This document shows, in pieces, positions 37,866 through 63,464 of a stretch of 64,000 nt of DNA. This DNA comes from an uncultured Gammaproteobacteria bacterium (GTDB lineage: Bacteria; Patescibacteriota; Patescibacteriia; Magasanikbacterales; UBA922), in assembly GCA_965231005.1 (NCBI GenBank), contig OZ246405.1, positions 949,657 to 1,013,656 of the forward strand, read 5' to 3'. Made by a program: the position numbers and the translations under genes. Within the stretch, counting starts at the first letter, position 1, and each line of letters opens with the position of its first letter. The notes under the pieces were generated by a model. It made no database searches. It was not told the DNA's origin and worked only from the letters and a program-made list of their open reading frames with translations.

Positions 37866-37960
37866 ACTAGTTATTAGCTACTAGCTAATAGTTATTAGTT
37901 ATTAGACAAACAAAGAGAGTAGAACCAAGTCATCTAATAACTAATAACTAGTAACTAATG
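37866..37960. repeat. stop-codon-rich palindromic intergenic element (TTATTAG/CTAATAA family)
   Basis: arms ctagttattagctactagctaatagttattagttattagac / catctaataactaataactagtaactaatg flanking a 25-nt spacer. Confidence 0.5.
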
Positions 37961-38042
37961 TCTTTTATTAATATAAAAAGATCATACCACAATTGCCCTT
38001 TCGTGACTACACAAAAAGACCATAATTTGATATACTCTTCCC

Positions 38043-38723
38043 ATGAGAAAAAGAATTGAAAACATAGAAATACAAGAACCCCCACTACGTGAAATAAACA
38101 AGAAAAAATCCTGTGTACGCAGAAGCTGTACCACAGGTTGTGGGTGCATAGTCTTATTTCTCATAGGACTATTGATTGCATTAAAATTTTTCTTGGTTTC
38201 ATCACCAAAAAATTTGAAAGAAATTCCAAAAAGCTTTCCAAATGATATCCCTATTTATGATGAAGACCGCGTCTCACATATATCATTTGTTTCTGGAAAA
38301 CAAAAGGGACGTGTTATTGAAATGTCAGCATATATTCCAAAACTCTTGCTTTCTCCGTTCCGAGTTATTTTAAATAAAGATATTAATGGTGATGCAACCT
38401 CAGACATAACGCAAGGAAATCTTTCAAATGTTGGTATTGATGATGTTGTAAACTTTATTCATAATCCAACAATTGATCAGCGTGACATAGTTCAAATTGA
38501 GTGGGATGATCTTTTGGCTGAACCATTGTTTATTCAAAAATACTACGAAACACAATTAAAAAAGAAAGGATATAAGATAAAAAATGAAAAAAATTCCTCT
38601 TCTGCATACGAGCTAAGCTTTGAAGGAAGAGGTGTTGATGGATCTGTCTTTATAAAAGATGATGTATCAGAAGATGGCACTGACTACCTTTCTTTAACAG
38701 TCAGTACTCCCCCCGTGCAATAG
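38043..38723 (+). CDS. hypothetical membrane-anchored protein flanked by two palindromic elements
   Basis: single TM near N-terminus (CGCIVLFLIGLLIALKFFLV), 226 aa. Confidence 0.45.
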   Translation: MRKRIENIEIQEPPLREINKKKSCVRRSCTTGCGCIVLFLIGLLIALKFFLVSSPKNLKEIPKSFPNDIPIYDEDRVSHISFVSGKQKGRVIEMSAYIPKLLLSPFRVILNKDINGDATSDITQGNLSNVGIDDVVNFIHNPTIDQRDIVQIEWDDLLAEPLFIQKYYETQLKKKGYKIKNEKNSSSAYELSFEGRGVDGSVFIKDDVSEDGTDYLSLTVSTPPVQ

Positions 38724-38866
38724 TTATTAGATACTAGTTAATAGTTATTAGACCAGAACACGATGATTCTTGTGCACATGTTCTATCTCTGTAAATAATA
38801 ACATTGGCACAAGAGCTATGCCGGAAAAAATCTAGTAACTAATAACTATTAGCTAATAACTAGTAA
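38721..38866. repeat. stop-codon-rich palindromic intergenic element (same family)
   Basis: arms tagttattagatactagttaatagttattagac / tctagtaactaataactattagctaataactagtaa, ~77-nt spacer. Confidence 0.5.
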
Positions 38867-38869
38867 AGC

Positions 38870-39787
38870 ATGAATATTAGAGAAATCTCACAAAACGGTC
38901 TTACCTGGGTCAATATTGATGAAGTAAATGAAGAATCTCTTGCTTATTTGAGGGAGAATTATAATTTTCATCACTTAGACTTGGAAGATATTCAAAGTGA
39001 TAGCCAATCTCCAAAAATTGATATTTATAAAAAATATGTTTTTGTTATTTTGCAATTCCCAGATTGGAATGCAAAACGTGGGACCATCCTTCCTCATCAA
39101 ATTGATTTCTTTGCAGGCGATGGGTTTCTTATTACCATTCAACATCACTCATCCAAATCAATGAAAGATACGTTTCGAAGATGGTTAAAAAATAAACGTG
39201 TGAAAAAAGAATGGATGGATAAAAATTCTGGATATCTGTTATACAGTATTGTTGAATCACTATTTCATGGCTCACGTCCAATTTTAAATGATCTGGGAAG
39301 AAAAATTTACAATGTTGAGCAAGAAATTTTTGAAGGTGAACAAGACAATGACATTATTAAAGAACTTGCACTGCACAGAAGAAATGTTCTTGGCTTCCGA
39401 CGCATTATTGATCCACAACGATATTTAATGGCAAATCTTTCTCATATTCGTACGCCATTTTTAAACGAAGACACATCACTTTATTTTGATGATATCAATG
39501 ACTACTTGAGTAAATTGTGGGCAACGGTTGATACATATAAAGATACGATCCAAGGACTGCATGTCACTGTTGAATCTTTGATTAATCAGCGAACAAACAA
39601 AGTTATTTCTGCACTAACTGTTATTTCTGTTTCTCTTCTCCCGCTTACCCTCCTTTCTGGAATTTATGGAATGAATATTGATCTCCCATTTATGGATCAT
39701 CCAGGATTTGTGTGGGGAATTTTCCTTATTCTTTCTGCTGTTATTATTTTATTAATAACAATAATGAGGAAGAAACGATGGATATAG
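38870..39787 (+). CDS. corA: CorA-family Mg2+/Co2+ transporter
   Basis: C-terminal two TMs with 'YGMNIDLPFMD' GMN motif. Confidence 0.8.
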   Translation: MNIREISQNGLTWVNIDEVNEESLAYLRENYNFHHLDLEDIQSDSQSPKIDIYKKYVFVILQFPDWNAKRGTILPHQIDFFAGDGFLITIQHHSSKSMKDTFRRWLKNKRVKKEWMDKNSGYLLYSIVESLFHGSRPILNDLGRKIYNVEQEIFEGEQDNDIIKELALHRRNVLGFRRIIDPQRYLMANLSHIRTPFLNEDTSLYFDDINDYLSKLWATVDTYKDTIQGLHVTVESLINQRTNKVISALTVISVSLLPLTLLSGIYGMNIDLPFMDHPGFVWGIFLILSAVIILLITIMRKKRWI

Positions 39788-39790
39788 AAA

Positions 39791-39882
39791 GAAATTAGAA
39801 ACTGGAAATTAGAAATTAGGGAATCACAAAAGTCGTACATATCAGAATCCCCAATTTCCAATTTCGAATTTCCAATTTCCAG
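39791..39882. repeat. long imperfect palindrome (GAAATTAG variant) between corA and murJ
   Basis: gaaattagaaactggaaattagaaattagggaatc vs gaatccccaatttccaatttcgaatttccaatttccag; mismatches become G.U pairs only in the minus-strand transcript. Confidence 0.45.
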
Positions 39883-39888
39883 CTAAAG

Positions 39889-41502
39889 ATGATCAAAAAA
39901 TTTTTTTCTTCTCAGTCAAAGACAATTACTGGTGCTGCCATTATCCTTGGGGCAGCTTCTTTTGTTAGCCGGATTATTGGCGTGCTTCGGGACAGAATCT
40001 TTGCACATCAATTTGGTGCAGGGGAAATTCTTGATGCATATTATGCAGCATTTCGTATTCCAGACTTAGTGTACAACCTTCTTGTTGTTGGAGCACTTTC
40101 TGCAGGATTTATTCCTGTGTTTATGGAACTGCTTGTAAAGGACAAAAAAGAAGCATGGAATGTAACAAATAGCATTATAAATATTCTTGGTATTGCATTG
40201 ATTTTTTTCTGTGCTGTTCTCATTGTATTTACACCACAGCTCATGAAATACATTGTTCCTGGTTTTTCTCCTGAACAATTACAAACAACTGTGATGCTGA
40301 CAAGAATTATGTTTTTAAGTCCAATTCTTCTTGGTATTAGCAGTGTTGTCAGTGGTGTACTCCAATCGTTCAAGTCATTTCTTGTATATGCCCTAACACC
40401 AATCATGTACAACATTGGGATTATTATTGGAGCAATATTTTTTGTACCAAAGGTTGGTATTGTTGGACTTGCCTATGGTGTGATTCTTGGTGCACTTCTC
40501 CATTTAACAATTCAACTTCCAACATTTTTTCATCATGGATTTAGATATAAATTTATTTTCTCTTTCAAACACAGTGCTGTGAAAAAAATATGTAAACTTA
40601 TGGTTCCAAGAACACTCGGTCTTGCCACCATTCAGTTCAATCTTATTGCCATGACAATTATTGCATCGCTGATTAGTTCTGGAAGTATTAGTATTTTTAA
40701 CTTTGCAAGTAATTTGCAATATTTTCCAATTGGCATTGTAGGCATTTCATTTGCTGTTGCAGCATTTCCTGCGTTTGCACGTGCGATTGCAGAGGATAAG
40801 CGAGAAAAAATGATTTCTCATCTTTCCATGACAATAAGGCAAATCTTATTCTTTATTATTCCACTTACGATTTTATTTTTACTTCTTCGTGCACAAATTG
40901 TTCGTGTTGTTTTGGGAAGTGGTCAGTTTGATTGGACAGATACAATTCTTACTGCAGACACGCTTGCATACTTTTCTATATCTCTTTTTGCTCAATCGCT
41001 TATTCCCCTTTTTGCACGAGCATTTTATGCGCTTCAAGATACATGGACACCATTTCTCACAGGTCTTGTTGGAACAGTGGTCAATATTGTATTTGCATGG
41101 TATTTAAAAGATTCACTTGGTATTGCAGGACTTGCACTTGCATTTTCCTGCGGCGCTGTAGTGCAGCTTGCACTCTTGTGGGTTGTGCTTCGATTTAAGC
41201 TCAAAACAATTTATGAATTTAGCATTTTAAAATCATTATATAAAATTTCTATTGCTGCGATTTGTATGACTGCTGTTGTACAAGTTCTCAAAACTCCGCT
41301 TGCATCACTTGTTGACATGACAAAATTTTGGGGAATTCTTACACAAGGATTTGTTGCAGGAACTATTGGTCTTCTTCTTTATGCAGGAGTCTGCTACATT
41401 CTTCAGGTTCATGAAATGATTATTCTTCAAAAAAGTTTGAAAAAGAAATGGTTGAAATTAATGAATATTCAGGGTGAGGTTGGAAGTGCAGATGAAATAT
41501 AG
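39889..41502 (+). CDS. murJ: lipid II flippase MurJ (MOP superfamily)
   Basis: 14-TM profile, 'GAASFVSRIIGVLRDRIFAHQFGAG', 'RIPDLVYNLLV'. Confidence 0.8.
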   Translation: MIKKFFSSQSKTITGAAIILGAASFVSRIIGVLRDRIFAHQFGAGEILDAYYAAFRIPDLVYNLLVVGALSAGFIPVFMELLVKDKKEAWNVTNSIINILGIALIFFCAVLIVFTPQLMKYIVPGFSPEQLQTTVMLTRIMFLSPILLGISSVVSGVLQSFKSFLVYALTPIMYNIGIIIGAIFFVPKVGIVGLAYGVILGALLHLTIQLPTFFHHGFRYKFIFSFKHSAVKKICKLMVPRTLGLATIQFNLIAMTIIASLISSGSISIFNFASNLQYFPIGIVGISFAVAAFPAFARAIAEDKREKMISHLSMTIRQILFFIIPLTILFLLLRAQIVRVVLGSGQFDWTDTILTADTLAYFSISLFAQSLIPLFARAFYALQDTWTPFLTGLVGTVVNIVFAWYLKDSLGIAGLALAFSCGAVVQLALLWVVLRFKLKTIYEFSILKSLYKISIAAICMTAVVQVLKTPLASLVDMTKFWGILTQGFVAGTIGLLLYAGVCYILQVHEMIILQKSLKKKWLKLMNIQGEVGSADEI

Positions 41503-41550
41503 TAAAAGGCCTTAAAGGCTTTAAAAGCCATAAATGCCGTAAAGGCTAAA
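41501..41550 (+). repeat. short imperfect tandem repeat (~5 x 9-mer TTAAAGGCT) overlapping the murJ stop
   Basis: taaaaggcc ttaaaggct ttaaaagcc ataaatgcc gtaaaggct. Confidence 0.4.
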
Positions 41551-41551
41551 C

Positions 41552-41580
41552 AAAAAAAACACCTTTTTAGGTGTTCTTTT
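41552..41580. terminator. bidirectional intrinsic terminator (AACACCT-tttt-AGGTGTT with A8/T-run flanks)
   Basis: caaaaaaaacacctttttaggtgttctttt. Confidence 0.65.
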
Positions 41581-41686
41581 TGATATCCCCGAACCTTGCA
41601 GTGCGTATTCGTGCGAATACCAACCTTGCTTGGATTCGGGGTGTGGTCCCCTTGTTGAATGTGAATCCCAGGATCGAACCTTTTGA

Positions 41687-42268
41687 TCAGTCTGCGACCA
41701 CGGCCCAGGTGTTCCAGTACTCGAGCGTCTCCTTCGCGTTGGTGCGCACGTCGAACATGTCCCAGTCGTTCACCTCGTTGTTGCCACCGGCGAGGTTGTA
41801 GACCAGTCGGTACGGCGTCAACGCAGCCTTGGGACCGGCGAATGCGAGGACTGCGACGATGACGTGGGTGCAGTCGCTCGCCTTGATCCGCGCTTCTTCC
41901 TCGGGCTCGTCAGCGATGTCCGGATCGTTCAGGTACGCATCACGCGTGTACACCACGCAAGCCAGACCTTCGACTTCGGCAGCCTTGTCTCGACGCAGGA
42001 ACATGCCGGGCTGGCCCCGGTGCGTACGAACCACGTAGTCGTCCGGATCCTTGGACTTATGACCCACACCGGCCGACACCGACGACCACGCAGACTCGGG
42101 CAGATGCACGAAGTGCTGACCTTCTGCACGGTCACCCGACGAGTCATGGGAATCGACCGCGCTGGTCAGTGCAGCCATGAACGAATCGGTGTCGATGACC
42201 TTGGAACCGATCACACCAGTGCTCTTGAAGGCGGTCAGGTCGCCGTAGATCTCAAACTTGATGCTCAT
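41687..42268 (-). CDS. hypothetical protein (GC-rich island, gene 2 of 2)
   Basis: GGGAGG SD, start at second ATG (6-nt spacing); ~60% GC; no recognisable motif. Confidence 0.45.
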   Translation of the reverse strand: MSIKFEIYGDLTAFKSTGVIGSKVIDTDSFMAALTSAVDSHDSSGDRAEGQHFVHLPESAWSSVSAGVGHKSKDPDDYVVRTHRGQPGMFLRRDKAAEVEGLACVVYTRDAYLNDPDIADEPEEEARIKASDCTHVIVAVLAFAGPKAALTPYRLVYNLAGGNNEVNDWDMFDVRTNAKETLEYWNTWAVVAD

Positions 42269-42329
42269 CATGTGCCTCCCGGCGTTGTAATCCAATCGAC
42301 CAGCAAGGTCGAAGGATGTAGAAAATGTG

Positions 42330-42363
42330 GAGAAGAGAAATATTAATCTCTCTTCTCCACACC
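42330..42363. terminator. perfect 12-bp palindrome GTGGAGAAGAGA-n9-TCTCTTCTCCAC between the two island genes
   Basis: probable terminator/operator; short T-run (ATTTTCT) on minus strand. Confidence 0.45.
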
Positions 42364-42594
42364 TTCAAAGTGGGGTCACTTTAAAGAGCGATTGCTTTTC
42401 GTCCTTGTCATATTCTGTTTGGACTTCAGCCATAGGCTGAACAGTTTCCACTGTCATCAGTACTGAATTCATCAGTAGAAGCGATGCGGAATAGATAGCA
42501 TATTCCGCACCCTCCCTTGTTGAATTGTTGTTGTCGTTCTACCCAGTCATGGCTATCATCTGTTGCCAGATCATGACTGTTTGATGAACGATTA

Positions 42595-43317
42595 CTAGCG
42601 CCGTGCGCGGCGATCAGCCCGGTCGAACCGCATCTCGATGGCCTCAGCCTCGATCTCAGCCTGCTGCTGTCTCACTTCCCCGGTCAGATCCCCGTGCGTA
42701 GCGATGTGCAGAGCGAGCATCTGCTCGAGCAGATCGATTTCCTGCTGCGCGCGACTCCACTGGCTCTCTTCCGGAAAGTCATACAGATCCGTGGTCTTGC
42801 ACCTGATCTCGTCGAGAAGCGTCACCTGAAAGGTCCACGGATCGCAGAGCTCGGGGAACTTGCGCGTGTGGCAGACCTTTCGGATGAAATGCCAGATGTG
42901 ATTCAGACGCGAGGGCTTTTCCTCGACGAACGAACCCGCACCCTCGACCACCGAGCACTGCTTGACTTCACCGTCTGCGACCTCGAGGACGAAGTAGGGC
43001 TCACGAGCCTTGCGCCAGCCCGGGCTGTACAGGCCGATGGTCAGCGTGGTGTCAGTTGCACGAACCTGCATGCGACCGCTGGAAGTGGTGTAGCAGAGTG
43101 CGCCTTCACCATCGAGCGTCCACGTTGCCTTGGTCCAGCCGAACTCGCCTTGCGGGGGCTTCTTGTCCTTGCGGGTCTCGACCAGCTTGTGCAGCTCTCC
43201 GATGTTGATGTCCGCAGGACTAACCCCGGGGGGATGACAGGTGTGACGCAGCATCCGCATGATGTACATCACGAGAGCAACGATGTTTTCAAACCGATTC
43301 TTCTTGACATTGGCCAT
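42595..43317 (-). CDS. hypothetical protein (GC-rich island, gene 1 of 2)
   Basis: AAGGAGGT SD 5 nt upstream of ATG 43317 (ORF 42595..43476 trimmed); C-terminal Arg/Glu/Gln-rich helix. Confidence 0.45.
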   Translation of the reverse strand: MANVKKNRFENIVALVMYIMRMLRHTCHPPGVSPADINIGELHKLVETRKDKKPPQGEFGWTKATWTLDGEGALCYTTSSGRMQVRATDTTLTIGLYSPGWRKAREPYFVLEVADGEVKQCSVVEGAGSFVEEKPSRLNHIWHFIRKVCHTRKFPELCDPWTFQVTLLDEIRCKTTDLYDFPEESQWSRAQQEIDLLEQMLALHIATHGDLTGEVRQQQAEIEAEAIEMRFDRADRRARR

Positions 43318-43634
43318 TGTGCACCTCCTTGGTTGTGCGAATGAGCGGCCAAACTCATGCGCTAGTGCGACCATGTTCATTATTGTTAATGGAAATGGTT
43401 GCACTACCAAGGTGGTATAAAAAGAACGGCCTTTGTGTAGAATTTTTTGCCTACACAAGACAACGTAGTCTAGCACAAAAAAAGGCTTTTGTCAAGGGGT
43501 TTTTGGCCTTTTTGGGCTAAAATAAAGGAAAAAAACAATAATTTTAGAACTTTTATGTTTTCTTGATAATAGATTTATTAATATTATTCCTGTACGGTTG
43601 ATATATAGATCCAAAATGTGTTTAATTATATACA

Positions 43635-44216
43635 GTGCTTAACGCTAACTCTATGACAGATACCGAACATAATAAATCAGACATATTAATAGTTCTTGAT
43701 GTTGATGAAACACTAATTCATGCAACAGACGAAAAATTAAATCAGAAAGAAGATTTCAAGGTCTTTGATTATTTTGTATATAAAAGACCACATTTACAAT
43801 CCTTCTTAGAAGAACTATATAAACACTTTAGGCTTGGTATTTGGTCATCTGCGAGTGATGATTTTGTAGAAGAAGTTATCAAAGTCATTGCACCAGAACA
43901 TATAGACTTTGAAATGATATGGGGCAGAAGTCGTTGTTCATTTAGAAGGGATATTGAAATTGATAGGTACTATTATGAAAAAAGGTTAAAAAAATTAAAA
44001 AGAAAGGGACATGATTTAGATAAAATTCTTTTAATTGATGATACACCAGAAAAGGCAAGAAGAAATTATGGGAATGCTATTTATATTCAAGAATTTACAG
44101 GAGATAAAGAAGATAATGAATTGCAAATATTATTAAAGTATTTGATTTCTTTGAAAGATGTTGAGAATGTTAGAGCGATAGAAAAGAGGGGGTGGAAGAA
44201 TTCGATTGAGAAATAG
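43635..44216 (+). CDS. NIF/FCP1-like HAD-family protein phosphatase (CTD-phosphatase-like)
   Basis: 'ILIVLDVDETLIHA' DxDxT motif, 'VYKRPHLQSFLEELYKHFRLGIWSSAS', 'LLIDDTPEK'. Confidence 0.65.
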   Translation: MLNANSMTDTEHNKSDILIVLDVDETLIHATDEKLNQKEDFKVFDYFVYKRPHLQSFLEELYKHFRLGIWSSASDDFVEEVIKVIAPEHIDFEMIWGRSRCSFRRDIEIDRYYYEKRLKKLKRKGHDLDKILLIDDTPEKARRNYGNAIYIQEFTGDKEDNELQILLKYLISLKDVENVRAIEKRGWKNSIEK

Positions 44217-44399
44217 AGATTCGGATTCGTTTTTCCAAAGTTACATCCCATTTAAACAGGATTTATAAAGATCAGCGGCAGTATTTTTTCTTTAAGCAAG
44301 CAAAGAGCAGTGTAGTGCTCAAAAAAAATTTTAGATACTATATATTGTGGATAACTTTATCTCATGAATATGTTATAATTTATATATAAAAATTTAATG

Positions 44400-44960
44400 T
44401 CTTTGCGGGACTCAAAGACAATGGCCGAGGAAACCCAAACCACCATTCAGGCGGGAACTTCGTAGGCAATGTCTAGAAATAGATTGCGCCCTACGCAAAG
44501 TCCCAACTAGCTTAGGGCAATGTTGCAAAACAAAGTCCTATGAAGTCTCGGCCTGGCTGGTGGTGTTTTTGTAAAAGGAATCTCTGAGTGAGTCATAATA
44601 GCCTCGTAACCACTTGCGGGGCAATATGGTTCACTTTTAAGAGCCAGGAAAATACCTTTGCTTATGCCTTGCAAAAGAAATAGCAAATGTAAAACTTCCT
44701 CTAAGCGCAAGACTGTAAGAGTCGTTGCACATAAGCGCAGACCGCGTTGCTAATATGTGTAAACCACTTATTAGGCGTTTGCCAGAGGAATCCTATTTTC
44801 CATGTATCACAAAACCGCACAATTAAGTACGGCTTGTGAGACCACTGACTAGAGATCAGTGATGGAAAATATGTTGAAAACCGAGGGTGTTCACAGACGT
44901 GTGAGCATCCTGTGGTTTTTATTTTAGAACTTATAAAAAGTTCTATAGGGGCGCGAGATT
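44400..44960 (+). ncRNA. GC-rich non-coding region, probably one or two structured RNAs (candidate tmRNA body or other stable RNA); identity unresolved
   Basis: ~50% GC, no ORF, internal T-run terminator-like sites at ~44573 and ~44927. Confidence 0.3.
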
Positions 44961-44962
44961 AG

Positions 44963-45047
44963 GGGGGAGATGTGACAGGTGTCACGGACAGGATTTATAC
45001 CCTGTTTGCTTCGTCGGCGTGGGGTTCAATACCCCTCTCCTCCACCA
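44963..45047 (+). ncRNA. 85-nt tRNA-like element with G3:U70 acceptor pair, T-arm GGGGTTCAATACCCC and 3' CCACCA (tmRNA tRNA-like domain or atypical type-II tRNA)
   Basis: acceptor GGGGGAG/CTCCTCC (7 bp incl. G.U at position 3), D-arm GTGAC-agg-TGTCAC, second hairpin ACAGG-8nt-CCTGT, encoded ACCA end; followed by GGACTTTTTTT. Confidence 0.45.
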
Positions 45048-45454
45048 AATCTTTCTCGCGTCTCTATAGGACTTTTTTTATTTTTGACGACAAAAAAATG
45101 TACCAAAGTTATCCACATTTGTCAAGTTTGTAAATGCAAAAATTGTCTTTGAACATTTTTTCCTCACAGACTTGCTTTAAAAAAAACGCTAATTTAAGCA
45201 ATTATTTTAAGAAGGCTAACGATACATTTATTATATAGTATTTTTTTTAAACACACAACACGGGTGCAATCTTTGTAAAATTTTGTAGAATTATTTTAGA
45301 GAAAAATTTCTTGCATTTTCTGCATGATTTTATTTTTTCTTCATATTGATTTTACTAGTATTACCTATAAGAAAGTAGACCGACTCATTCAGACAATTTG
45401 ATTTTCTAAATACATTAATATAATTCCCAAAAATCTCTCAAACTTATAAATACT

Positions 45455-46144
45455 ATGACCAATCTAGAAAAACAAGTCAGCGACATAACTATAGGCATTA
45501 GATTTCAGAGATCCTTCAAGATTCAGGACATACTAGGCACAATAACTGATAAACTCCTTCATGATGAAAACTCACCGCTGAGTGTAGACTACTTCCCTAG
45601 GAGAGATCAGAACTTATCCGAAATGATTCTAACAAACGACAAAGAATCTTACTTGAAGGTTAATACGGATGATATTATTTTTAGGCATTCAATTGAAAAA
45701 GACCTACACAATGACATAGAGTTTATGAAAGAATACTTAAAATATATCAGGAAATTGCTTAGAAAATATAATATTCAAAATATTACAAGAATCGGGATTA
45801 TCTACAACCATAAATTTAAGGGAGACCAATCAAAATTTGATGATGCAATAAAATCAATAACAAACAACACCCTAGTTGAAACTGATAATTTTTCATTTTC
45901 GTTCTCAAAAAAAATTCCAGATCCCACTGCCTTGTATGATACGGACGTTGATGATTATCGAAATGTTATTTATATATTTAAAAAGATTTCAGACAAAATA
46001 TTTTCTGCGAGTGTAGATTATCAAAAATATTTTAAACCACCCCTTGAGTATATCGAAGATGAACTTTACGAGAATCTATTGAATGATAGTAGACATTTTT
46101 TAGAAAAAAAGTTTTATAATATTTTTTTAGACATAGATGAGTAA
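45455..46144 (+). CDS. hypothetical protein
   Basis: 229-aa AT-rich ORF downstream of the tRNA-like element. Confidence 0.4.
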   Translation: MTNLEKQVSDITIGIRFQRSFKIQDILGTITDKLLHDENSPLSVDYFPRRDQNLSEMILTNDKESYLKVNTDDIIFRHSIEKDLHNDIEFMKEYLKYIRKLLRKYNIQNITRIGIIYNHKFKGDQSKFDDAIKSITNNTLVETDNFSFSFSKKIPDPTALYDTDVDDYRNVIYIFKKISDKIFSASVDYQKYFKPPLEYIEDELYENLLNDSRHFLEKKFYNIFLDIDE

Positions 46145-46670
46145 AAAAAATAATCCAAGAAAAAGAACTCGACAAAAAGATAGAATTGATAGAAAAAACT
46201 ATGCAGGTTCCTTGGGATTGCATCCAGTAGATGGAACTGAGAAAGAAGCATCTACTTTATCTTCAGACTCATCAACATTCAAACAAAGGGAAAGACCTAA
46301 AAAAACCAAAAAAAGACCTAAAAAGAGAAAGTCAGCAAGTAAAAAGACCTCTGATCACATAAAGAAAAATTGGGTTAACTATTTGATATCTGGTTTGTGG
46401 GTGATTGCATGCTTCTTATTTTTAAATGACTACAATTTTAATGCAGATTTAAAAGTAGCTGAGAATAAAATACTAAACATAGAAAAACGCATTACTGAAT
46501 ACAAGGAGAGCGGGATAATCTCCAAAGAGGAGTACCAAAATTTTGAAAATGAAATTGAAAAAATAAAGAATACATATTCAAAACTAGACAAAGTCAACAA
46601 ATTAGAAAAAGACCTTGAGATACTTAAAATATCTACAGAAAAAGACCTAGAAAATCTAAAGAATAGCTGA
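46137..46670 (+). CDS. hypothetical Lys-rich membrane/coiled-coil protein
   Basis: start overlaps previous stop (ATGAGTAA); one TM (WVNYLISGLWVIACFLFL) then coiled-coil. Confidence 0.4.
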   Translation: MSKKNNPRKRTRQKDRIDRKNYAGSLGLHPVDGTEKEASTLSSDSSTFKQRERPKKTKKRPKKRKSASKKTSDHIKKNWVNYLISGLWVIACFLFLNDYNFNADLKVAENKILNIEKRITEYKESGIISKEEYQNFENEIEKIKNTYSKLDKVNKLEKDLEILKISTEKDLENLKNS

Positions 46671-46756
46671 CTTGCCCCACCCCTCATTTTAAGGTAAAAT
46701 ATAAGCAAAAGAATAGAGGCCTTTTTGGCCTATTTTTGTGAATCTCTCCCTTATTT

Positions 46757-48538: not shown

Positions 48539-48618
48539 ATACTCCTCCAGTTTCACTTTTGTTTAAAAAACAGCATTTTTCTTCATATTAATTGACAAAT
48601 AAATATAAACCAATCACT

Positions 48619-48726: not shown

Positions 48727-48729
48727 ACT

Positions 48730-49317: not shown

Positions 49318-49318
49318 T

Positions 49319-52614: not shown

Positions 52615-53301
52615 CTATAAATCATGTTTTCTCATGACTACCTCTTTAGCACTTTCATATTTTTGAACCTTCCCTCGAATCCATGGTAACCACTTCCATG
52701 GTTTTTTATATGCAAAACTTGGAAGCCATGAACTCATCCCCTCATTGTGAGGAGTGACAGTAAAGAGATATTCATCCACCCAAACCCCTTTTTTGCCTTG
52801 TTTTAGCATTGTAAGCCATAAATCCCAGTCTTGGAACCTCTTTAGCGTCTCATCCCATAAAACCGCCTTAGAACGCCGAATTAGGCTTGTGGAGTGGATG
52901 TAATTGTTCTTTTTTAGTGCATCTGGGCTAAATTCCTGTGCTGGCATCTTATGAGTACCAAATGACATATTTGAGTATGCATAACTAGCCTCAGGATGCT
53001 GCTGCAGAGCAGAAAATAACTTTTGAAGAAAACTTGGTTTTGCAATTACATCTGCATCCCAAAAAATAACATACTCCCCTTTTGCTGCTTGTAATCCTTT
53101 ATTTCTCGCAGCAGGCGCCCCACTATTTTTTTGTGTAAGAAGATGATACTCATCACTGTGCTCAATGGGAACATCACTTCCATCATCAACAACAATAATT
53201 TCTCTGTTTTTATACGTTTGAGCAGTAATAGAATCCAGTGCATGTTTCAAAGCCTCTGCATGATTGTATACTGGAACAACAATACTAATGAGCGGCTGCA
53301 T
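52615..53301 (-). CDS. family 2 glycosyltransferase
   Basis: 'ISIVVPVYN', 'IIVVDDGSD', DxD. Confidence 0.75.
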   Translation of the reverse strand: MQPLISIVVPVYNHAEALKHALDSITAQTYKNREIIVVDDGSDVPIEHSDEYHLLTQKNSGAPAARNKGLQAAKGEYVIFWDADVIAKPSFLQKLFSALQQHPEASYAYSNMSFGTHKMPAQEFSPDALKKNNYIHSTSLIRRSKAVLWDETLKRFQDWDLWLTMLKQGKKGVWVDEYLFTVTPHNEGMSSWLPSFAYKKPWKWLPWIRGKVQKYESAKEVVMRKHDL

Positions 53302-54391
53302 ATACTTTTTTTAAATGAAGTACAACTGGGAATGAAATATGTAGCAAGCCAAGCAGGACAAATACATATTTTTCTAAATCATAAAATAGCAAGAGTGCAA
53401 CAAATACTAATAAAATAACTCTACCAATATTTAAATACACTTCTCTTGAAATCCACGTGATTGGTTTTTTTTCTTTTTTATCTTGAATAATATTTGACCG
53501 AATTGGTTCTACAAGAACAGTGAGTGCTTGAAGAATAACTGCAAGAACCATAAACCAGAAAAATGTATTTACAAAATAAAATAGTCCTGTCACTATTCCT
53601 GCTGCAATAGAAAGTGGCCAAATAAATATTGTGCGTTTTTTTCTTTTGTCAGAAAATTTTGCCATTTCAAATGCAAAAAATAATGCAACAAGACTAATCA
53701 AAGATAAGAACAAACCATAATCAGTTTCTGTCTGAATATATTTCAAAGAAAATACTGGAATAATAACAAACTTTACTTTGTGAAGTGCACCATCAATTAA
53801 ATTTACTGTGCGCAATCCTTTTAAGTATTGAAGACTTTGTTTAAGCGTGTATCGATATTCTTCGCTTTTAATAAATCTTGTAAGGTAGAGTGCAAATGCA
53901 ACAATTAAAAGTGAAACAATCAAAAATACGTTCAGACCAAACCCAGCAAAAATGTATGCACCAACTATTGGACCTACAACAGCTGTAACAATGGAAACAC
54001 CCCAATACCATGTCATTTCTTGTAAATGCTTATCTTTGTTTGCATCTTTGAAAAAGAGAATATTGTATGGTGTGTAAAAAATAATTGTTCCTAAGAAATC
54101 TACGACAAAATAAATGTACAAAATAATGTGTACATCTATGCTTGTAAAGAAAAGAAGCATGCTTGCTGCTAGCAGAAGAAACGACGTTACAATGCTTTTC
54201 CTGGAATGAAAATATCCTCGAAACAACAGATATATAATTACAACAAGGACAGACACTGCTTTTGCAAGAATAAGTTCGGCAAAACTGATACTTTCTTTTA
54301 CAAAATACAAATATAGAAGGACTGCAAATCCATGATGAAAAAATGTGTTCAAACCCTGAATCCACCAAATTCTAAAATGCTTTTTCAACAT
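53285..54391 (-). CDS. polytopic membrane protein (MFS-like, ~12 TM)
   Basis: hydrophobicity profile only. Confidence 0.45.
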   Translation of the reverse strand: MLKKHFRIWWIQGLNTFFHHGFAVLLYLYFVKESISFAELILAKAVSVLVVIIYLLFRGYFHSRKSIVTSFLLLAASMLLFFTSIDVHIILYIYFVVDFLGTIIFYTPYNILFFKDANKDKHLQEMTWYWGVSIVTAVVGPIVGAYIFAGFGLNVFLIVSLLIVAFALYLTRFIKSEEYRYTLKQSLQYLKGLRTVNLIDGALHKVKFVIIPVFSLKYIQTETDYGLFLSLISLVALFFAFEMAKFSDKRKKRTIFIWPLSIAAGIVTGLFYFVNTFFWFMVLAVILQALTVLVEPIRSNIIQDKKEKKPITWISREVYLNIGRVILLVFVALLLFYDLEKYVFVLLGLLHISFPVVLHLKKVYAAAH

Positions 54392-54530
54392 ACTAGTTAT
54401 TAGCTATTAGTTATTAGACTACATCAACGTCCATCTTAATCTCAAAATATTATTATATTAACATCTTTCTGTTTAAAAAAATTTCTATACTAAGCTAATA
54501 ACTATTATCTATTAACTAGTAACTATTAAT
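54392..54530. repeat. stop-codon-rich palindromic intergenic element (same family)
   Basis: arms tactagttattagctattagttattagact / taagctaataactattatctattaactagtaactattaat; abuts start codon of one gene and stop of the next. Confidence 0.5.
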
Positions 54531-55671: not shown

Positions 55672-55714
55672 AAAGATGTTGTTGGATATATTTTATCATC
55701 AACACAGGAGTGCA

Positions 55715-57145: not shown

Positions 57146-57188
57146 AATGTCTTTATTTTACGCTCATTTGAGTGAAAAAACAAGCTCT

Positions 57189-57272
57189 CTACTAGCTAAT
57201 AGTTATTAGTTAATATCTATTAGTAAAAATGTATTACCAACTAATCTAATAACTAGTAACTAATAACTAATC
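57189..57272. repeat. stop-codon-rich palindromic intergenic element (same family)
   Basis: ctactagctaatagttattagttaatatctattag / ctaatctaataactagtaactaataactaatc. Confidence 0.5.
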
Positions 57273-57339
57273 ATTCAAAAAGTGATAAGCAACATAATTA
57301 AAAAAATCCTACAAAGTAGGACTTTCTTATTAATATATT

Positions 57340-57750: not shown

Positions 57751-57751
57751 A

Positions 57752-58102: not shown

Positions 58103-58112
58103 ATATATCTTA

Positions 58113-58463: not shown

Positions 58464-58477
58464 ACGTACAAAATTAA

Positions 58478-59188: not shown

Positions 59189-59250
59189 ATATTTTTTTTA
59201 TGGAGGACAGGCAAATTGTCCCTCGCTGCCCTGACAAATGCCAGGATAAA

Positions 59251-59874
59251 TTAACGAGATGCGTAAAACTCAATAATTAATTTAACATCAAATACTTTTT
59301 CTTTTTCATCATCACTTGGCTTGTTCAACACTTTTCCAGTCTGTTTCTTTGCGTCAACTGAAACCCATCCTGGGAGGTTGTGTTTTGCAAGTCGGTCTGT
59401 CAATCCTTCAAAAATCTTTTTTCCTTCTTTTCCTTTTTTAATAGCGACTTCATCACCAGGCTTTACCAAATGAGAAGGAATGTTCATTTTCTTTCCATTC
59501 AATGTGAACATGTTATGACCAACCATTTGACGAGCTTGTGCACGTGTTGTTGCAAATCCCATTCTGTAAATAACATTATCAAGTCGAGATTCTAAAATTT
59601 GTACAAGATTTTGACCAGAATCACCTTCTAAACGACTCGCTTCTGTAACATATCCGCGGAACTGTCGTTCACGAAGTCCATACATGTACTTTGCTTTTTG
59701 TTTTTCAATAAGTTGTTTTCCGTAAGAAGACTTTGATGGTCGGCGTTTTGAAACACCATGAACACCTGGCTTTTGGCCAAGTCTTCGTGCAACCTTGGTT
59801 GGATTTGTTTTCAATCCAAGATTGATACCGAATCGTCTTGCAATTTTATTTTTTGGTCCAATATATCTACCCAT
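59251..59874 (-). CDS. rpsD: 30S ribosomal protein S4
   Basis: 'MGRYIGPKNKIARRFG', S4 domain. Confidence 0.9.
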   Translation of the reverse strand: MGRYIGPKNKIARRFGINLGLKTNPTKVARRLGQKPGVHGVSKRRPSKSSYGKQLIEKQKAKYMYGLRERQFRGYVTEASRLEGDSGQNLVQILESRLDNVIYRMGFATTRAQARQMVGHNMFTLNGKKMNIPSHLVKPGDEVAIKKGKEGKKIFEGLTDRLAKHNLPGWVSVDAKKQTGKVLNKPSDDEKEKVFDVKLIIEFYASR

Positions 59875-59882
59875 ACATTATA

Positions 59883-60278
59883 TTATACTCGTCGACGTTT
59901 TGGTGGACGACAACCATTATGTGGAATTGGTGTTACGTCTTTAATTGATAAGACTTGAATACCGTTTGAATGGAATGCGCGAATTGCACCTTCTCTTCCA
60001 CCACCAATACCTTTTACAAAAATACTAATTTCTTTAACACCGTATTCTTTTACACGCTCTGCAACACTGCGAACAACTTGTTGTGCAGCATATGGTGTTG
60101 CTTTTTTTGGTCCTTTGAACCCAACAGCACCTGCACTTGACCAACCAAGTACATCACCATTCTGATCTGTAACAGTAACAATAGTATTGTTAAACGTAGC
60201 CTGAATATATGCTCGGCCATGTCCAACATTTTTATTGATAATTTTCTTTTTCTTTTTTGATTTTACTTTTTTTGCCAT
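59883..60278 (-). CDS. rpsK: 30S ribosomal protein S11
   Basis: '[15 protein letters not shown]', '[14 protein letters not shown]'. Confidence 0.9.
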
Positions 60279-60306
60279 ATAAATAGGTAAGAGCAACTGC
60301 TATACA

Positions 60307-60693
60307 TTACGTTTTTTGAGCAGCAGGTTTCTTTCCGCTGACTGCAATATTTCTTTTATTTCCACGCAATGTTCTTGAATTTGTTTTTGTTCGTTGTCCA
60401 CGTACTGGAAGTTTCTTTGCGTGTCGTGTTCCACGATATGATTTAATATCTCGAAGTCGTTTAATATTACTTGAGATAACACGTCGTAAATCACCTTCTG
60501 TGTTGTGTTGTTTTTCAATAATTTGACGAATAATATCTTCTTGCGCACGAGTTAAATCTTTTGTGCGAATACTTTCATCAATATTTGCAAGTTTCAAAAT
60601 CTTTTCTGCTGTAGTACTTCCAATACCAAATACATATGTTAATGCAATAACGATTCTTTTATTCTTTGGAATGTTTACACCTGATACACGCAT
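60307..60693 (-). CDS. rpsM: 30S ribosomal protein S13
   Basis: 'MRVSGVNIPKNKRIVIALTYVFGIG'. Confidence 0.9.
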   Translation of the reverse strand: MRVSGVNIPKNKRIVIALTYVFGIGSTTAEKILKLANIDESIRTKDLTRAQEDIIRQIIEKQHNTEGDLRRVISSNIKRLRDIKSYRGTRHAKKLPVRGQRTKTNSRTLRGNKRNIAVSGKKPAAQKT

Positions 60694-60709
60694 ATGTTAT
60701 ATAAATGAG

Positions 60710-60847
60710 TTATGCTGACTTTACCCGTTGTTTTTGTCCTTGTCGTTGTTTGTGTCTAGGATTTTCACAAATAACATACACAGAACCGCGTCGACGGACT
60801 GTCTTACATTTTTTACATCTTTTTTTTACTGATGACTGTACTTTCAT
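60710..60847 (-). CDS. rpmJ: 50S ribosomal protein L36 (with short C-terminal extension)
   Basis: Hand translation: [37 protein letters not shown]... (C-x2-C...C-x4-H zinc ribbon); below ORF-track cutoff. Confidence 0.75.
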
Positions 60848-60916
60848 AAAAAAAATCCACAAACGGCGCGCGATATCTTCGTCTAACAAGACTCCACCAC
60901 GCTTACTGTCTGGATA

Positions 60917-61132
60917 TTAATAGCGATATGTTATGCGTCCTTTTGTAAGATCATATGGAGTCATTTCTACCTTTACTTCATCGCCCACGCCTAGCCGAAT
61001 ACGATGCATACGCATTTTTCCAGCAAGATGTGCAATGACTTCATGATCATTTTCGAGAAGCACTCGAAATTTCGCTCCTGGTAGCAATTCTTCAATGCTT
61101 CCTTTGAGCTCTACTACGTCTTTTTTTGACAT
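60917..61132 (-). CDS. infA: translation initiation factor IF-1
   Basis: '[51 protein letters not shown]'. Confidence 0.9.
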
Positions 61133-61296
61133 GATCGCTATATGTTTAAACTGGCCATATTGTACAGGAATACAAATAGTATGTCAAGTTTCCCTGACTG
61201 ACCAGCTGTTAATAAGTGGTTTTGAGCTTAGTATAGCAGAAAATTTAGGATTTGTGAAGAAAATAGGTCAAAATTGGAAAGTTATACACAGGCCTC

Positions 61297-61328
61297 GATT
61301 ATTAGCTAATAGTTACTAGTTATTAGCC
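61297..61328. repeat. single-arm copy of the TTATTAG palindromic element
   Basis: gattattagctaatagttactagttattagcc. Confidence 0.35.
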
Positions 61329-61337
61329 AAGTATAGA

Positions 61338-61736
61338 TCACACCTTACTAAAATCATCTTTATATGGAAGAAGTTCTTCTAACTTCACTACTCGATCTTT
61401 TCCAAGAATAACCTCTGTATTTATATTATCTTTATTCATTTGTCGGATAAATTCTCTGCATCTTCCACAAGGATGCAGTACATGAACAGATCCGTCCTTA
61501 TCTTTCCAAACCGCAACAATTTTTTTAATACCATATTCTCCATTGGTCACCATGGTTCCAATTGCATTATGCTCTGCACAAAAACCCATACTTGACATAG
61601 TATCTATACAAACCCCTGTATAGATATTGTCATTCTCTGAAATAAGTGCACATCCAACATCACCAGATGTAAAATCTCCAATTTTTTCAGAGCGAACAAC
61701 ATCTGCTGCTGCTTGAATAAGTTCATCATTTCTCAT
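61338..61736 (-). CDS. cdd: cytidine deaminase
   Basis: 'CAEHNAI' and 'PCGRCREF' zinc-binding motifs. Confidence 0.8.
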   Translation of the reverse strand: MRNDELIQAAADVVRSEKIGDFTSGDVGCALISENDNIYTGVCIDTMSSMGFCAEHNAIGTMVTNGEYGIKKIVAVWKDKDGSVHVLHPCGRCREFIRQMNKDNINTEVILGKDRVVKLEELLPYKDDFSKV

Positions 61737-61775
61737 ACTAATAACTATTAAATAATAGATAATAAATATTAAATA

Positions 61776-62177
61776 TTACTTATATACCCAATATTTATAT
61801 AAAAAGAAATTCCACCCAACTGCAATACCAATTGCTGCAATACGTACAAGACGGTAGTCAAATTCAAGAAGTTCATTAAATATGTACATCATTGCCACAC
61901 CAAATATATAATTCCATGCTGCAAGAATTGCATATCGCACAAACTGTTTGTGTGGCATTGCATGATTCTTGAATGACCAATACTTATTTAACAAAAAATT
62001 ATACACCATAACGATACACAGGATAATTGCTACAGATATGGTTGCATTCATGTTGAGGACTGTTTTAGAAAAAATCAGCAGTCCCATGTCCAGAAAAAAA
62101 CCACTAAACCCAACAACAGCATACTTTGTAAACTCATGCCGTACAGACCATGCATACCCTAATGACTTTTTTATCAT
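61776..62177 (-). CDS. GtrA-family membrane protein
   Basis: 4-TM, 'KYAVVGFSGFFLDMGLLIF...LNKYWSFK'; start ambiguous (62177 or 62237). Confidence 0.5.
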   Translation of the reverse strand: MIKKSLGYAWSVRHEFTKYAVVGFSGFFLDMGLLIFSKTVLNMNATISVAIILCIVMVYNFLLNKYWSFKNHAMPHKQFVRYAILAAWNYIFGVAMMYIFNELLEFDYRLVRIAAIGIAVGWNFFLYKYWVYK

Positions 62178-62471
62178 AATAAAGAATAAGAAATAACAGA
62201 TCCACCTTTGCCCTACCTGCTTTGGCGGATGAAACAATTATATCAAAAAAGAACAAGAAGTACGATGTTCGTACTTCTTGCCTTGTGGGTTTACAGCTTT
62301 TGCAAAGGCAATTGCTGTGTCCGCCCTCCAACAGTTGCGTAGTGCCCCCTCCTGGAGCTACTGTCTGTGATCACTCTATACAGAACATTTGACGTTCTGT
62401 ATTAAATACGCTAGTGTACATGCAGAAAAAAGTCAATATAATAAGCAAAAAAACACACAAAATTAAACAAA

Positions 62472-63335
62472 TTGTTTAATAATTGGGTCATTATGCTATT
62501 AGGAGAGAACAATAACCTTGAAAATCATGTTATTCATATATTGGCACACTCAGGAAAAGCAAAAGTTGAAGATGTATTAGATGCATTTGGGCGTGATGAA
62601 AAAGGGGCCACAGTTCAAGGTGTTTACCGCGTACTCAGAAAACTACAAAAAGAAGGAGTCATTTCAAAGGAAAGGAGTTCTTATAGTTTGCGCATTCCAT
62701 GGCTACTTGAATTAGCAAGTTTAGTAGACACCATGGAGGACACGTATCTCAACAAAGAATATTTAAAACAATTACTTCCAGCACCTGGCGCTGCAAAAAA
62801 AGTTTGGACGTTTAGTAATTTACTAAAAATGAATGATGTGCGAATGCACATCTTGCTTGCTCTTACACGACACATTAAAAAAGGAATTGCTCTTCAGTAT
62901 GCACCTCATGATTGGTTTACTATTTTGAACATGAGACAAGCTGCCCAATTTAAAAAATCTTTTTTAGAACATATCAATAAAAGCTACGTCATTATTGGTG
63001 GCCAAAGTTATGTTGATAAATATATTAGAGCACTTTCAAAAACAGAAAAAGAAGAAACATATCTTGCACCAGAAGAAGATTGTGTTGAGCAAGAACGAAA
63101 TATGTATGTTGATGTTATTGATGATTATATTTTGACTATCAAATTAGACGATCACACAACAAAAAATATTGATACACTTTACAACAGCATAGCATCTGAA
63201 GATGATATGCATCTGCTCGATATTTTTGAAACATTCACTGGAAAAGTAAAAGTCAAAATGATTATAAAAGAAGACCCTCGGAAGGCCGGGGTCTATCGGA
63301 GAAAAGTTACAAATGCGTTTGGACCGTTACGATAA
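62472..63335 (+). CDS. hypothetical protein with winged-helix-like N-terminal segment
   Basis: 287-aa ORF; 'VQGVYRVLRKLQKEGVI'. Confidence 0.4.
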   Translation: MFNNWVIMLLGENNNLENHVIHILAHSGKAKVEDVLDAFGRDEKGATVQGVYRVLRKLQKEGVISKERSSYSLRIPWLLELASLVDTMEDTYLNKEYLKQLLPAPGAAKKVWTFSNLLKMNDVRMHILLALTRHIKKGIALQYAPHDWFTILNMRQAAQFKKSFLEHINKSYVIIGGQSYVDKYIRALSKTEKEETYLAPEEDCVEQERNMYVDVIDDYILTIKLDDHTTKNIDTLYNSIASEDDMHLLDIFETFTGKVKVKMIIKEDPRKAGVYRRKVTNAFGPLR

Positions 63336-63464
63336 TAGTTATTAGATATTAGTTAATAGCTACTAGATGATAAAGTGTTAGACTCTAGATACTAAAACAA
63401 GATTGGCAAGCCAATCTTGTTTTCTAATAACTATTAACTAATAGCTAGTAACCAGTAATTATTC
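63334..63464. repeat. stop-codon-rich palindromic element enclosing a perfect bidirectional terminator (63394-63423)
   Basis: outer arms taatagttattagatattagttaatagctactag / tctaataactattaactaatagctagtaaccag; inner AAAACAAGATTGG-caag-CCAATCTTGTTTT. Confidence 0.55.

Follow-up and report, generated by a model that had tools for sequence, protein, structure and literature searches.

Convergent arrays of a degenerate, stop-rich heptamer on the gene borders of a Patescibacteria chromosome

In a 64,000-nt stretch of the genome of an uncultured, ultra-small Patescibacteria bacterium (contig OZ246405.1 of assembly GCA_965231005.1, positions 949,657 to 1,013,656; hereafter the window), we found short tandem arrays of a degenerate heptamer, N-T-A-N-T-A-G, that sit on gene borders and are laden with stop codons. 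Twelve of the 13 arrays form six convergent pairs, in each of which the N-TA-N-TAG strand points inward; the array at 23922 is solitary. The corresponding junctions of syntenic relatives are tight and carry no arrays. We tentatively read the pairs as stop-rich foldback insertions, which would end translation, fold into double-stranded RNA (dsRNA) stems and uncouple neighbouring genes.

Heptamer arrays and their convergent pairs

An earlier note on this DNA had described a family of stop-rich palindromic intergenic elements built from TTATTAG/CTAATAA heptamers at eight named loci. Tandem 7-mers are present at all eight. TTATTAG occurs 27 times in the window, compared with 10.9 ± 3.05 times in dinucleotide shuffles of it, and none of the 100 shuffles reached 27. 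A scan for tandem units matching.TA.TAG returned 13 arrays of 4–6 units in the window and none in 50 shuffles. These counts, together with the six convergent pairs, support a real family of palindromic, stop-rich intergenic elements. Two-unit matches elsewhere in the window showed no excess over chance.

The word first taken as the unit is thus enriched, but the real unit is degenerate. Positions 2, 3, 5, 6 and 7 of N-T-A-N-T-A-G (T, A, T, A and G) are nearly invariant; variation is restricted to positions 1 and 4, which hold T, C or A and almost never G (61 units; chi-square p = 3e-19). Exact TTATTAG makes up 22 of the 61 units. The complement is C-T-A-N-T-A-N, or TAACTAN when read cyclically. 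Tandem Repeats Finder reported period 7 at every locus, with 14- and 21-nt super-periods on top. Pure TTATTAG forms the innermost unit of 9 of 12 arms, as against 13 of 49 units elsewhere (P = 0.005).

Seven arrays have the N-TA-N-TAG sequence on the plus strand (23922, 37864, 38717, 54390, 57189, 61299 and 63332) and six on the minus strand (37934, 38832, 54495, 57246, 61738 and 63424). Their distribution is patchy, 12 of the 13 falling inside 37.8–63.5 kb, and none was found in the 5.2 kb past the right end of the window. Including this extension (L246), the sequence of the source genome that was covered amounts to ~69 kb. The two-array elements are numbered below as pairs 1 to 6 (NTANTAG type); a seventh, second-family pair lies at 39790–39881.

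23922–23949, plus strand: solitary array of four units (TTATTAG TTATTAG ATATTAG TTACTAA); fills the HPF–MurB junction, 3 nt from the HPF start, and overlaps the MurB stop
37864–37905, plus strand: pair 1, left arm, six units; 4 nt upstream of the codon that starts RNase J (beta-CASP; gene on the minus strand)
37906–37933, no strand: pair 1, middle, 28 nt of unique sequence
37934–37968, minus strand: pair 1, right arm, five units, the outer two degenerate; 74 nt from the start of the 226-aa gene
38717–38751, plus strand: pair 2, left arm, five units; contains the TAG stop (38721–38723) of the 226-aa membrane protein gene
38752–38831, no strand: pair 2, middle, 80 nt; an inner hairpin of its own, and a weak promoter-like match at 38804–38831
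38832–38866, minus strand: pair 2, right arm, five units; ends 3 nt before the corA ATG (38870); the CorA N-terminus is conserved
39790–39819, plus strand: second-family left arm, AAATTAG type; begins 2 nt past the corA stop
39851–39881, minus strand: second-family right arm, 4.4 copies of CCAATTT; ends 7 nt before the murJ ATG and holds no stop codons
54390–54417, plus strand: pair 3, left arm, four units; 2-nt overlap with the start codon of the MFS gene (on the minus strand)
54418–54494, no strand: pair 3, middle, 77 nt and AT-rich; the minus strand has a weak promoter-like match
54495–54529, minus strand: pair 3, right arm, five units; contains the GT4 TAA stop
57189–57223, plus strand: pair 4, left arm, five units; 43 nt upstream of the Wzx start
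57246–57273, minus strand: pair 4, right arm, four units; 66 nt downstream of the rpsI stop, past the rpsI terminator (57299–57329)
61299–61326, plus strand: pair 5, left arm, four units; 11 nt past the cdd stop, upstream of the conserved infA promoter region
61338–61736, minus strand: cdd, cytidine deaminase of 132 aa, the cargo of pair 5; absent between gtrA and infA in the relative L247/L248
61738–61765, minus strand: pair 5, right arm, four units; 1 nt from the cdd ATG and 10 nt past the gtrA stop
63332–63366, plus strand: pair 6, left arm, five units; contains the TAA stop (63333–63335) of the 287-aa gene
63394–63423, no strand: perfect bidirectional terminator-type hairpin (AAAACAAGATTGGC AA GCCAATCTTGTTTT) inside pair 6
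63424–63458, minus strand: pair 6, right arm, five units; abuts the stop of AlaRS (alanyl-tRNA synthetase, minus strand; the gene leaves the window)

All arrays lie between open reading frames (ORFs), extending at most into the terminal codons. Stop codons in all six frames, as the earlier note had proposed for TAG and TAA, are present in 12 of the 13 arrays and in 0.6% of other intergenic 35-mers. Conversely, 11 of the 13 contain no ATG, GTG or TTG on either strand, against 2% of the background. The arrays also abut start and stop codons: with the second-family pair counted, for 11 of 15 the nearest ORF boundary is overlapped or no more than 7 nt away, and for ten of them no more than 4 nt. 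The 226-aa gene, GT4 and the 287-aa gene have their stop codons inside arrays, that of MurB is overlapped and that of AlaRS abutted, while other arrays end 0–4 nt before the start codons of RNase J, corA, MFS, HPF and cdd. No Shine-Dalgarno (SD) sequence was seen upstream of any gene of the window, ribosomal protein genes included. Boxes resembling a −10 element often lie 10–30 nt or fewer from the ATG, which suggests leaderless or short-leader mRNAs. In a genome with these two properties, an array placed directly before a start codon is not obviously harmful.

Within pairs 1 to 6, ungapped arm matches extend over 24–35 nt with 83–92% complementarity, and the mismatches between arms sit at the variable unit positions. 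Five middles measure 28, 80, 77, 22 and 57 nt; one of 411 nt holds the whole of cdd. The arms were expected to form long hairpins, and folding of the six short-spacer pairs (five TTATTAG pairs and the AAATTAG pair) did give long, interrupted, AU-rich hairpins with stems of 24–35 bp and z = −3.0 to −6.4. The arms flanking cdd (28 nt, 86% complementary, 411 nt apart) are a sequence match only and are not among the folded pairs. The arms are AU-rich and have no U tract, so they are not intrinsic terminators. Separate classic terminators occur at 57299–57329 and at 63394–63423, the latter being the perfect bidirectional terminator that one element had been said to enclose, and which indeed lies inside pair 6. 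In a sigma-70 promoter scan around the pairs, match counts were not above those of shuffles; promoter assignments in the middles are therefore suggestions only.

The seventh convergent pair is made of a different heptamer (AAATTAG in the left arm, CCAATTT in the right), both arms being built on this one shared unit. It fills the corA–murJ junction and folds into a hairpin with z = −4.8.

Other tandem repeats were seen on gene ends. A 9-mer, TAAAGGCNN, is repeated 4.7 times at 41505–41546, starting directly past the murJ stop and preceding a classic terminator; it adds a third kind of tandem repeat to those seen on gene ends here. On a contig that resembles those of the candidate phyla radiation (CPR) (L179, reverse strand, 2589–2620), a TTCTAGN heptamer array fills the ssb–rpsR junction and abuts the rpsR start. 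CTAG- or TAG-rich junction heptamers therefore come in several sequence families. An apparent NTANTAG pair around rpsR on this contig proved false, the partner being the other heptamer, TTCTAGN.

The window is otherwise an ordinary chromosomal stretch, with genes for SecA, SecDF, UvrABC, DnaX, ribosomal proteins, RpoA, MurB and MurJ and a G+C content of ~36%; among named relatives, Candidatus Magasanikbacteria match it best. TGA serves as a stop, which rules out an alternative genetic code in favour of the standard one. At gathering thresholds, Rfam found only tRNA-Gln in the window, and no rRNA. Overlapping contigs from two ENA assemblies match the window at 100% identity, so that the array features are not assembly artefacts. 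ENA contigs k127_51336 and k127_114033 (PRJEB17505) belong to the same strain. At the right edge (63459–64000; L246 3787–5715), an ORF of 155 aa is the C-terminal part of a 642-aa alanyl-tRNA synthetase that continues beyond the window. At 1916–4495, an 859-aa protein with TrwB/TraG-type coupling-protein and HerA domains is followed by two ORFs without a Pfam match; this region may be part of a conjugation-like or DNA-uptake module.

Array sites in syntenic relatives

We compared the window with three contig sets for which DNA was available (L123/L124/L125, L247/L248 and L249) and with a fourth relative known from its gene table alone. These relatives are distant (CorA 71%, RpoA 78–80% identity). 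They share the order RNase J, 220-aa protein, CorA, MurJ, LepA ... RecJ, RNase H, GT2, GT4, Wzx, S9 ... InfA, GtrA, 285-aa protein, AlaRS. The elements do differ between relatives: gene order is kept in all four contig sets, and no array was found in the three with DNA. At the array sites, the junctions of the relatives, the fourth included, are overlapping or 1–12 nt long:

220-aa gene/CorA: overlapping, or 10 nt
CorA/MurJ: 1–4 nt
GT2/GT4: −4 to 12 nt
HPF/MurB (L123): 9 nt
285-aa gene/AlaRS: 20-nt overlap

The window holds an array block at every one of these five junctions. Given array-free relatives with tight junctions and an unchanged gene order, each block occupies a junction that is tight in them. 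Blocks of 100–150 bp at overlapping or near-overlapping junctions are conspicuous because genomes of the CPR are very compact.

N-termini of the array-adjacent proteins are conserved residue for residue with their orthologues, and CorA, MurJ, AlaRS and MurB also terminate at the residue where their orthologues do. Three C-termini are shorter than in the orthologues, by 8 aa in GT4 (381 aa against 390 aa for the orthologue overall), 6 aa in the 287-aa protein and 19 aa in GtrA; these are ended by the array or just before it. In alignments, ~130 nt upstream of infA, with a TTGACA-17-TACAAT promoter, is shared by the window and two relatives, and the array–cdd–array block sits between this conserved promoter region and the gtrA stop. 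Pair 1 likewise sits between conserved promoter-side sequence and the RNase J ATG. Whole-block gain in this lineage is the most economical reading, and the blocks, specific to this lineage among the relatives examined, are here read as insertions.

Extra DNA accompanies arrays at two places, namely cdd, bracketed by pair 5, and the MFS gene adjoining pair 3. None of the relatives examined has the latter (53285–54391) between GT2 and GT4; here it shares 17 nt with GT2 at one end and abuts pair 3 at the other. A role of the repeats as recombination sites for cassette exchange of glycan genes, as the earlier note had suggested, is not supported by the comparison. The GT4 and Wzx genes between pairs 3 and 4 have orthologues at the same place in the array-free relatives and are therefore not an exchanged cassette.

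A larger difference lies between murJ and lepA, where ~5.2 kb (41503–46756) is found in this lineage only and the relatives have 42–87 nt. It has a G+C fraction of 0.48 at 42–44 kb, ORFs without a Pfam match and a NIF-type phosphatase (43635–44216), followed by an ORF-poor stretch of 1.2 kb (44217–45454). No arrays flank this region.

Arrays elsewhere and comparison with known systems

Searched as a general four-unit pattern in GTDB genomes, (N-TA-N-TAG)n occurs at no fewer than 120 loci among the matches listed, mostly as perfect microsatellites, in Cyanobacteria, Bacteroidota, Patescibacteria, Ignavibacteria, Fibrobacter and others. Heterogeneous arrays like those of the window were seen on >120 metagenome contigs; of 119 cases in the metagenome sample, 118 lie between genes, often right against an ORF end. 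Partners are convergent rather than divergent in 6:0 cases in the window, 9:0 at the genome loci among the matches listed and 22:7 at the metagenome loci (p = 0.008).

Some of these arrays bracket genes. At all six array-selected loci of this kind, a PF05635 gene (S23p, the 23S rRNA intervening-sequence protein) lies between inverted heptamer arrays outside rRNA, the heptamers being of many different sequences with NTANTAG among them:

L030, 3678–4123: array-bracketed PF05635 gene
L084, 5141–5555: array-bracketed PF05635 gene
L153, 118–576: array-bracketed PF05635 gene
L172, 3355–3807: array-bracketed PF05635 gene
L178, 40–525: array-bracketed PF05635 gene
L195, 11000–11500: array-bracketed PF05635 gene

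At L222, the long middle between arrays is a small winged-helix gene. When loci were selected by the protein instead (L259–L273), strong period-7 flanks were present at 6 of 14 intervening-sequence (IVS) protein ORFs, against 2.5% of 79 control ORFs, and strong flanking inverted repeats at 5 of 14, against 5% of the same controls. In the window itself, jackhmmer and Pfam searches gave no PF05635 ORF.

The cdd gene of the window belongs to a clade whose homologues, 62–82% identical, are named from Peregrinibacteria, Moranbacteria, Nanoarchaeota, Thermoplasmata and Anaerolineae. Two homologues are tightly bracketed by unrelated inverted repeats (L251 87–531, 27 nt, 100% complementary; L253 588–1058, 30 nt, 83%). 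From these two other contexts, hairpin-bracketing of small genes recurs without sequence conservation, and cdd looks like a hairpin-bracketed, horizontally mobile gene cassette.

Among described repeats, the closest in sequence are the TAACTGA repeats of Beggiatoaceae, some Cyanobacteria and Bacteroidetes. These are intergenic sets of 2–6 units, often split by related 7-mers, with three-frame stops in one orientation and of unknown function (MacGregor 2015, PMC4679880). In BOGUAY, most of them end ~1 nt upstream of starts that lack a ribosome-binding site (RBS) and can overlap the upstream stop, and one set in 170 is inverted (PMC4679880). The complement of TTATTAG, cyclically TAACTAA, is one base from TAACTGA, and (TAACTAN)n likewise stands upstream of the SD-less starts of RNase J (4 nt), corA (3 nt), MFS (0 nt) and HPF (3 nt). 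Unlike these repeats, the window units are degenerate at two positions, form convergent inverted pairs that fold into hairpins, stand at stops as often as at starts, enclose unique sequence or a gene, and occur in a Patescibacteria (CPR) host.

A terminal stem combined with heptamers is found in the 23S rRNA IVS of Coxiella burnetii, where a 28-bp terminal stem is cut by RNase III and tandem heptamers of variable number occur at the cut site (PMC4990558); that element is regarded as selfish, with a variable or decaying interior (PMC4990558). The window elements share the stem (24–35 bp in our folds) and the heptamers. In contrast to the IVS, however, they lie between protein genes and not in helix 25 or 45, have no S23p ORF, and have arms that consist wholly of heptamers. 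The 23S rRNA IVS is excised by RNase III, a cleavage that the window elements may also undergo.

Heptanucleotide repeats of the short tandemly repeated repetitive (STRR) type were reportedly described in cyanobacteria by Mazel in 1990. Heptamers are the commonest class of long simple sequence repeats (long SSRs, LSSR) in prokaryotes according to Mrazek (2007), as far as that work is cited in PMC4679880. The window arrays resemble STRR/LSSR in being tandem heptanucleotides, intergenic, phylogenetically scattered and of a kind ascribed to slippage. STRR/LSSR are, however, near-perfect, usually solitary and often long, whereas the window arrays are short, degenerate at fixed positions and arranged as inverted pairs on gene borders.

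With palindromic families, namely repetitive extragenic palindromes (REP), bacterial interspersed mosaic elements (BIME), REP doublets forming hairpins (REPIN) and Correia-type miniature inverted-repeat transposable elements (MITE), the window elements share small size, intergenic location and a palindromic form. REPINs are hairpin-forming doublets, and Correia/nemis elements give RNase III substrates when co-transcribed. Such families have a conserved unique sequence, copies that are alike, defined ends and usually target duplications or a cognate REP-associated tyrosine transposase (RAYT) or other transposase. In the window elements, by contrast, we found no conserved unique sequence, defined ends, target duplication or window-encoded RAYT or transposase. 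A REP or REPIN unit is an imperfect palindrome of ~20–40 nt, whereas a window arm is a tandem 7-mer array that is not itself palindromic. Terminal inverted repeats of the MITE kind are present, in the form of arms with ungapped matches of 24–35 nt and 81–92% complementarity, but the match is no better than that between any two arrays of the family. The earlier assignment to a REP/BIME- or MITE-like family is therefore not supported, since the arms are tandem heptamers, the middles are unrelated and there is neither a target-site duplication nor a window transposase.

Lastly, ribosome termination structures (RTS) are stable mRNA structures right after a stop codon that control re-initiation and are proposed to insulate neighbours (Chemla 2020, PMC7518266). 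An RTS is a statistical folding bias of ordinary sequence, neither heptameric nor inserted, while the window elements are repeated blocks at stops.

Heptanucleotide repeats, IVS stems and palindromic intergenic repeats are thus already known separately. In the searchable literature, we found no description of degenerate, stop-laden convergent heptamer pairs on CPR gene borders together with arms that bracket IVS genes, and a literature search for the exact repeat strings returned nothing relevant.

Competing explanations and significance

If the pairs are stop-rich foldback insertions, as we tentatively propose, an element would be composed of two convergent arrays round a variable middle, either 22–80 nt of unique sequence (some of it promoter-like or a terminator) or the small gene cdd. 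A ribosome entering an arm would stop at once, and for several genes the array would itself provide the stop codon. As the upstream ORF ends on the entering arm and the array supplies stops, the element would be untranslatable. Because the arms are mutually complementary, a transcript crossing the element should fold into an AU-rich stem of 24–35 bp, which would run from at or next to the stop codon to 1–7 nt before the next start. Translation of neighbouring cistrons may be uncoupled in this way, by analogy with stable structure after a stop (PMC7518266), and RNase III would probably cut the long dsRNA stem, as the architecture shared with the 23S rRNA IVS suggests. Spread could have occurred as a foldback cassette, or by inverted duplication and then slippage. 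We infer that the elements are largely selfish or neutral punctuation of gene borders that would uncouple genes coupled in the relatives; the insulator idea of the earlier note is a reasonable inference.

A number of observations weigh against this explanation. Co-variation between arms at the variable positions did not exceed chance (26/54, compared with 22.4 ± 3.1 for shuffled units, P = 0.16), so that selection for the stem, over and above the common consensus, has no positive evidence in its favour. The palindrome is therefore the product of two opposed arrays with a common consensus and not of arm-specific pairing, as the arms agree no more than shuffled units do; with co-variation at chance, nothing suggests that one arm was copied from the other or that particular pairings are preserved. 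Consistently, the arms of one element are no more alike than those of different elements, and alignment of all 13 arms revealed nothing in common beyond the heptamer consensus, the order of units varying between arms. The six middles are not similar either: all 15 pairwise comparisons were at chance, and no middle has a second copy. No target-site duplication was found, the best flanking direct repeats being of 4–5 nt at arbitrary shifts of up to 8 nt, with no common length or sequence. No mobilising enzyme (transposase, recombinase or IS200/RAYT-like protein) is among the proteins encoded in the window, and no RNase III gene is present in the ~69 kb covered. Pair 4, with a terminator on one side and a promoter on the other, is possibly never transcribed.

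Stop codons are entirely missing from the right arm of the AAATTAG pair, so that the architecture does not require stop-richness; it is therefore the hairpin architecture, and not richness in stops, that the two families have in common. On the evolutionary side, no relative with CorA identity above 71% was found by which gains could be dated, the dense pattern of arrays is present in one lineage only, and loss of the blocks in the relatives, instead of gain here, is a less economical possibility. Our confidence in the proposal is limited, because compensatory changes are missing from the arms and no sign of mobilising activity emerged.

One competing explanation is that the arrays are plain heptanucleotide SSRs of the LSSR/STRR type, grown in place by slippage at gene ends and tolerated there as untranslatable, with hairpins and border position as by-products without a role. 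The units are head-to-tail 7-mers with a 14-nt super-period and belong to what is cited as the commonest long SSR class of prokaryotes (Mrazek 2007, through PMC4679880). The pattern recurs, mostly as perfect microsatellites, at the 120 or more listed loci of many phyla, and other tandem repeats (AAATTAG and the 9-mer) stand at junctions of the same stretch; pure TTATTAG in the innermost unit of 9 of 12 arms is also what growth at one end would give. Slippage, however, cannot make unique middles of 22–80 nt or a gene of 400 nt in junctions that measure 0–12 nt in relatives. It also leaves the strong excess of convergent over divergent partners unexplained, and variation confined to two of seven positions is unlike neutral decay. 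We consider this explanation rather unlikely. Somewhat more doubtful is that the arrays are binding sites for an RNA- or single-strand-binding protein (S1, cold-shock or CsrA-like) that drives or regulates SD-independent initiation, as was proposed for TAACTGA. What speaks for such sites is the sense-strand (TAACTAN)n arrays that end 0–4 nt before the conserved starts of RNase J, corA, MFS and HPF, the second-family arm 7 nt upstream of murJ, a unit one base from TAACTGA in a genome without SD sequences, and the similar placement of BOGUAY repeats, mostly ~1 nt upstream of RBS-less starts and able to overlap the upstream stop (PMC4679880). Yet equally many arrays follow stops or have a terminator on one side and a promoter on the other, the cdd array is turned the opposite way, and orientation tracks the partner arm and not the gene. 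Moreover, the genes concerned recur with identical N-termini in the array-free relatives, and inversion is very rare among the Beggiatoaceae repeats (1/170 sets).

The inverted arms themselves, with ungapped matches of 24–35 nt, their presence here against absence in syntenic relatives at no fewer than eight junctions, and a variable cargo that is in one case a gene would also suit a true MITE/REPIN family of non-autonomous transposons. Its terminal inverted repeats would be the arrays, and a transposase or RAYT from some other locus would mobilise it in trans. Eukaryotic foldback transposons, whose terminal inverted repeats are built from tandem sub-repeats, offer a precedent for such arms. 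Against such a family stand the missing target-site duplication, the unrelated middles, arms that are no more alike within an element than across elements, the lack of a conserved terminal sequence past the heptamer consensus and the absence of a transposase or recombinase from the window; in addition, a REP unit is itself a palindrome, which the window arms are not. We regard it as distinctly improbable. Inverted repeats around middles of 77–80 nt with weak promoter-like matches, near GT4, Wzx, MFS and corA, could finally suggest invertible promoter switches (invertons), in which a site-specific recombinase flips the middles and phase-varies the adjacent glycan and membrane genes. The promoter matches are, however, no commoner than in shuffles, two middles measure no more than 22 and 28 nt, a third is a symmetric terminator and a fourth a whole gene, and no recombinase is encoded in the window. 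Furthermore, independent assemblies show the same orientation (two ENA contigs for pairs 1, 2 and the second-family pair, one for pairs 3–6). Phase switching is therefore very hard to credit.

The foldback insertions that we propose may have wider connections. It is conceivable, though we think it unlikely, that the pairs are ORF-less or cargo-swapped members of a widespread, undescribed class of foldback cassettes, whose full-length form carries the S23p/PF05635 four-helix-bundle gene and of which the rRNA IVS would be the rRNA-resident tip. On that reading, the class would span Patescibacteria, Bacteroidota, Cyanobacteria and others as a general mobile element, and the pentameric S23p (Avd-like) protein might act on the heptamer arms. 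In a more speculative variant, telomere-style addition of repeats would extend both 3′ ends of a break, and filler DNA would be trapped in between; such addition would explain both the inward TAG strands and the purest innermost unit.

Were the arrays inert products of slippage, their value would be descriptive only. If instead the blocks uncouple cistrons, through a stop-laden hairpin and possible cuts by RNase III, small non-coding insertions would rewire operons in organisms without SD-guided initiation. The finding also links the heptanucleotide repeats of Cyanobacteria, Bacteroidota and Beggiatoaceae with S23p/IVS elements and with hairpin-bracketed cassettes such as cdd, a link that gives a testable hypothesis on the origin and spread of IVS-type elements.

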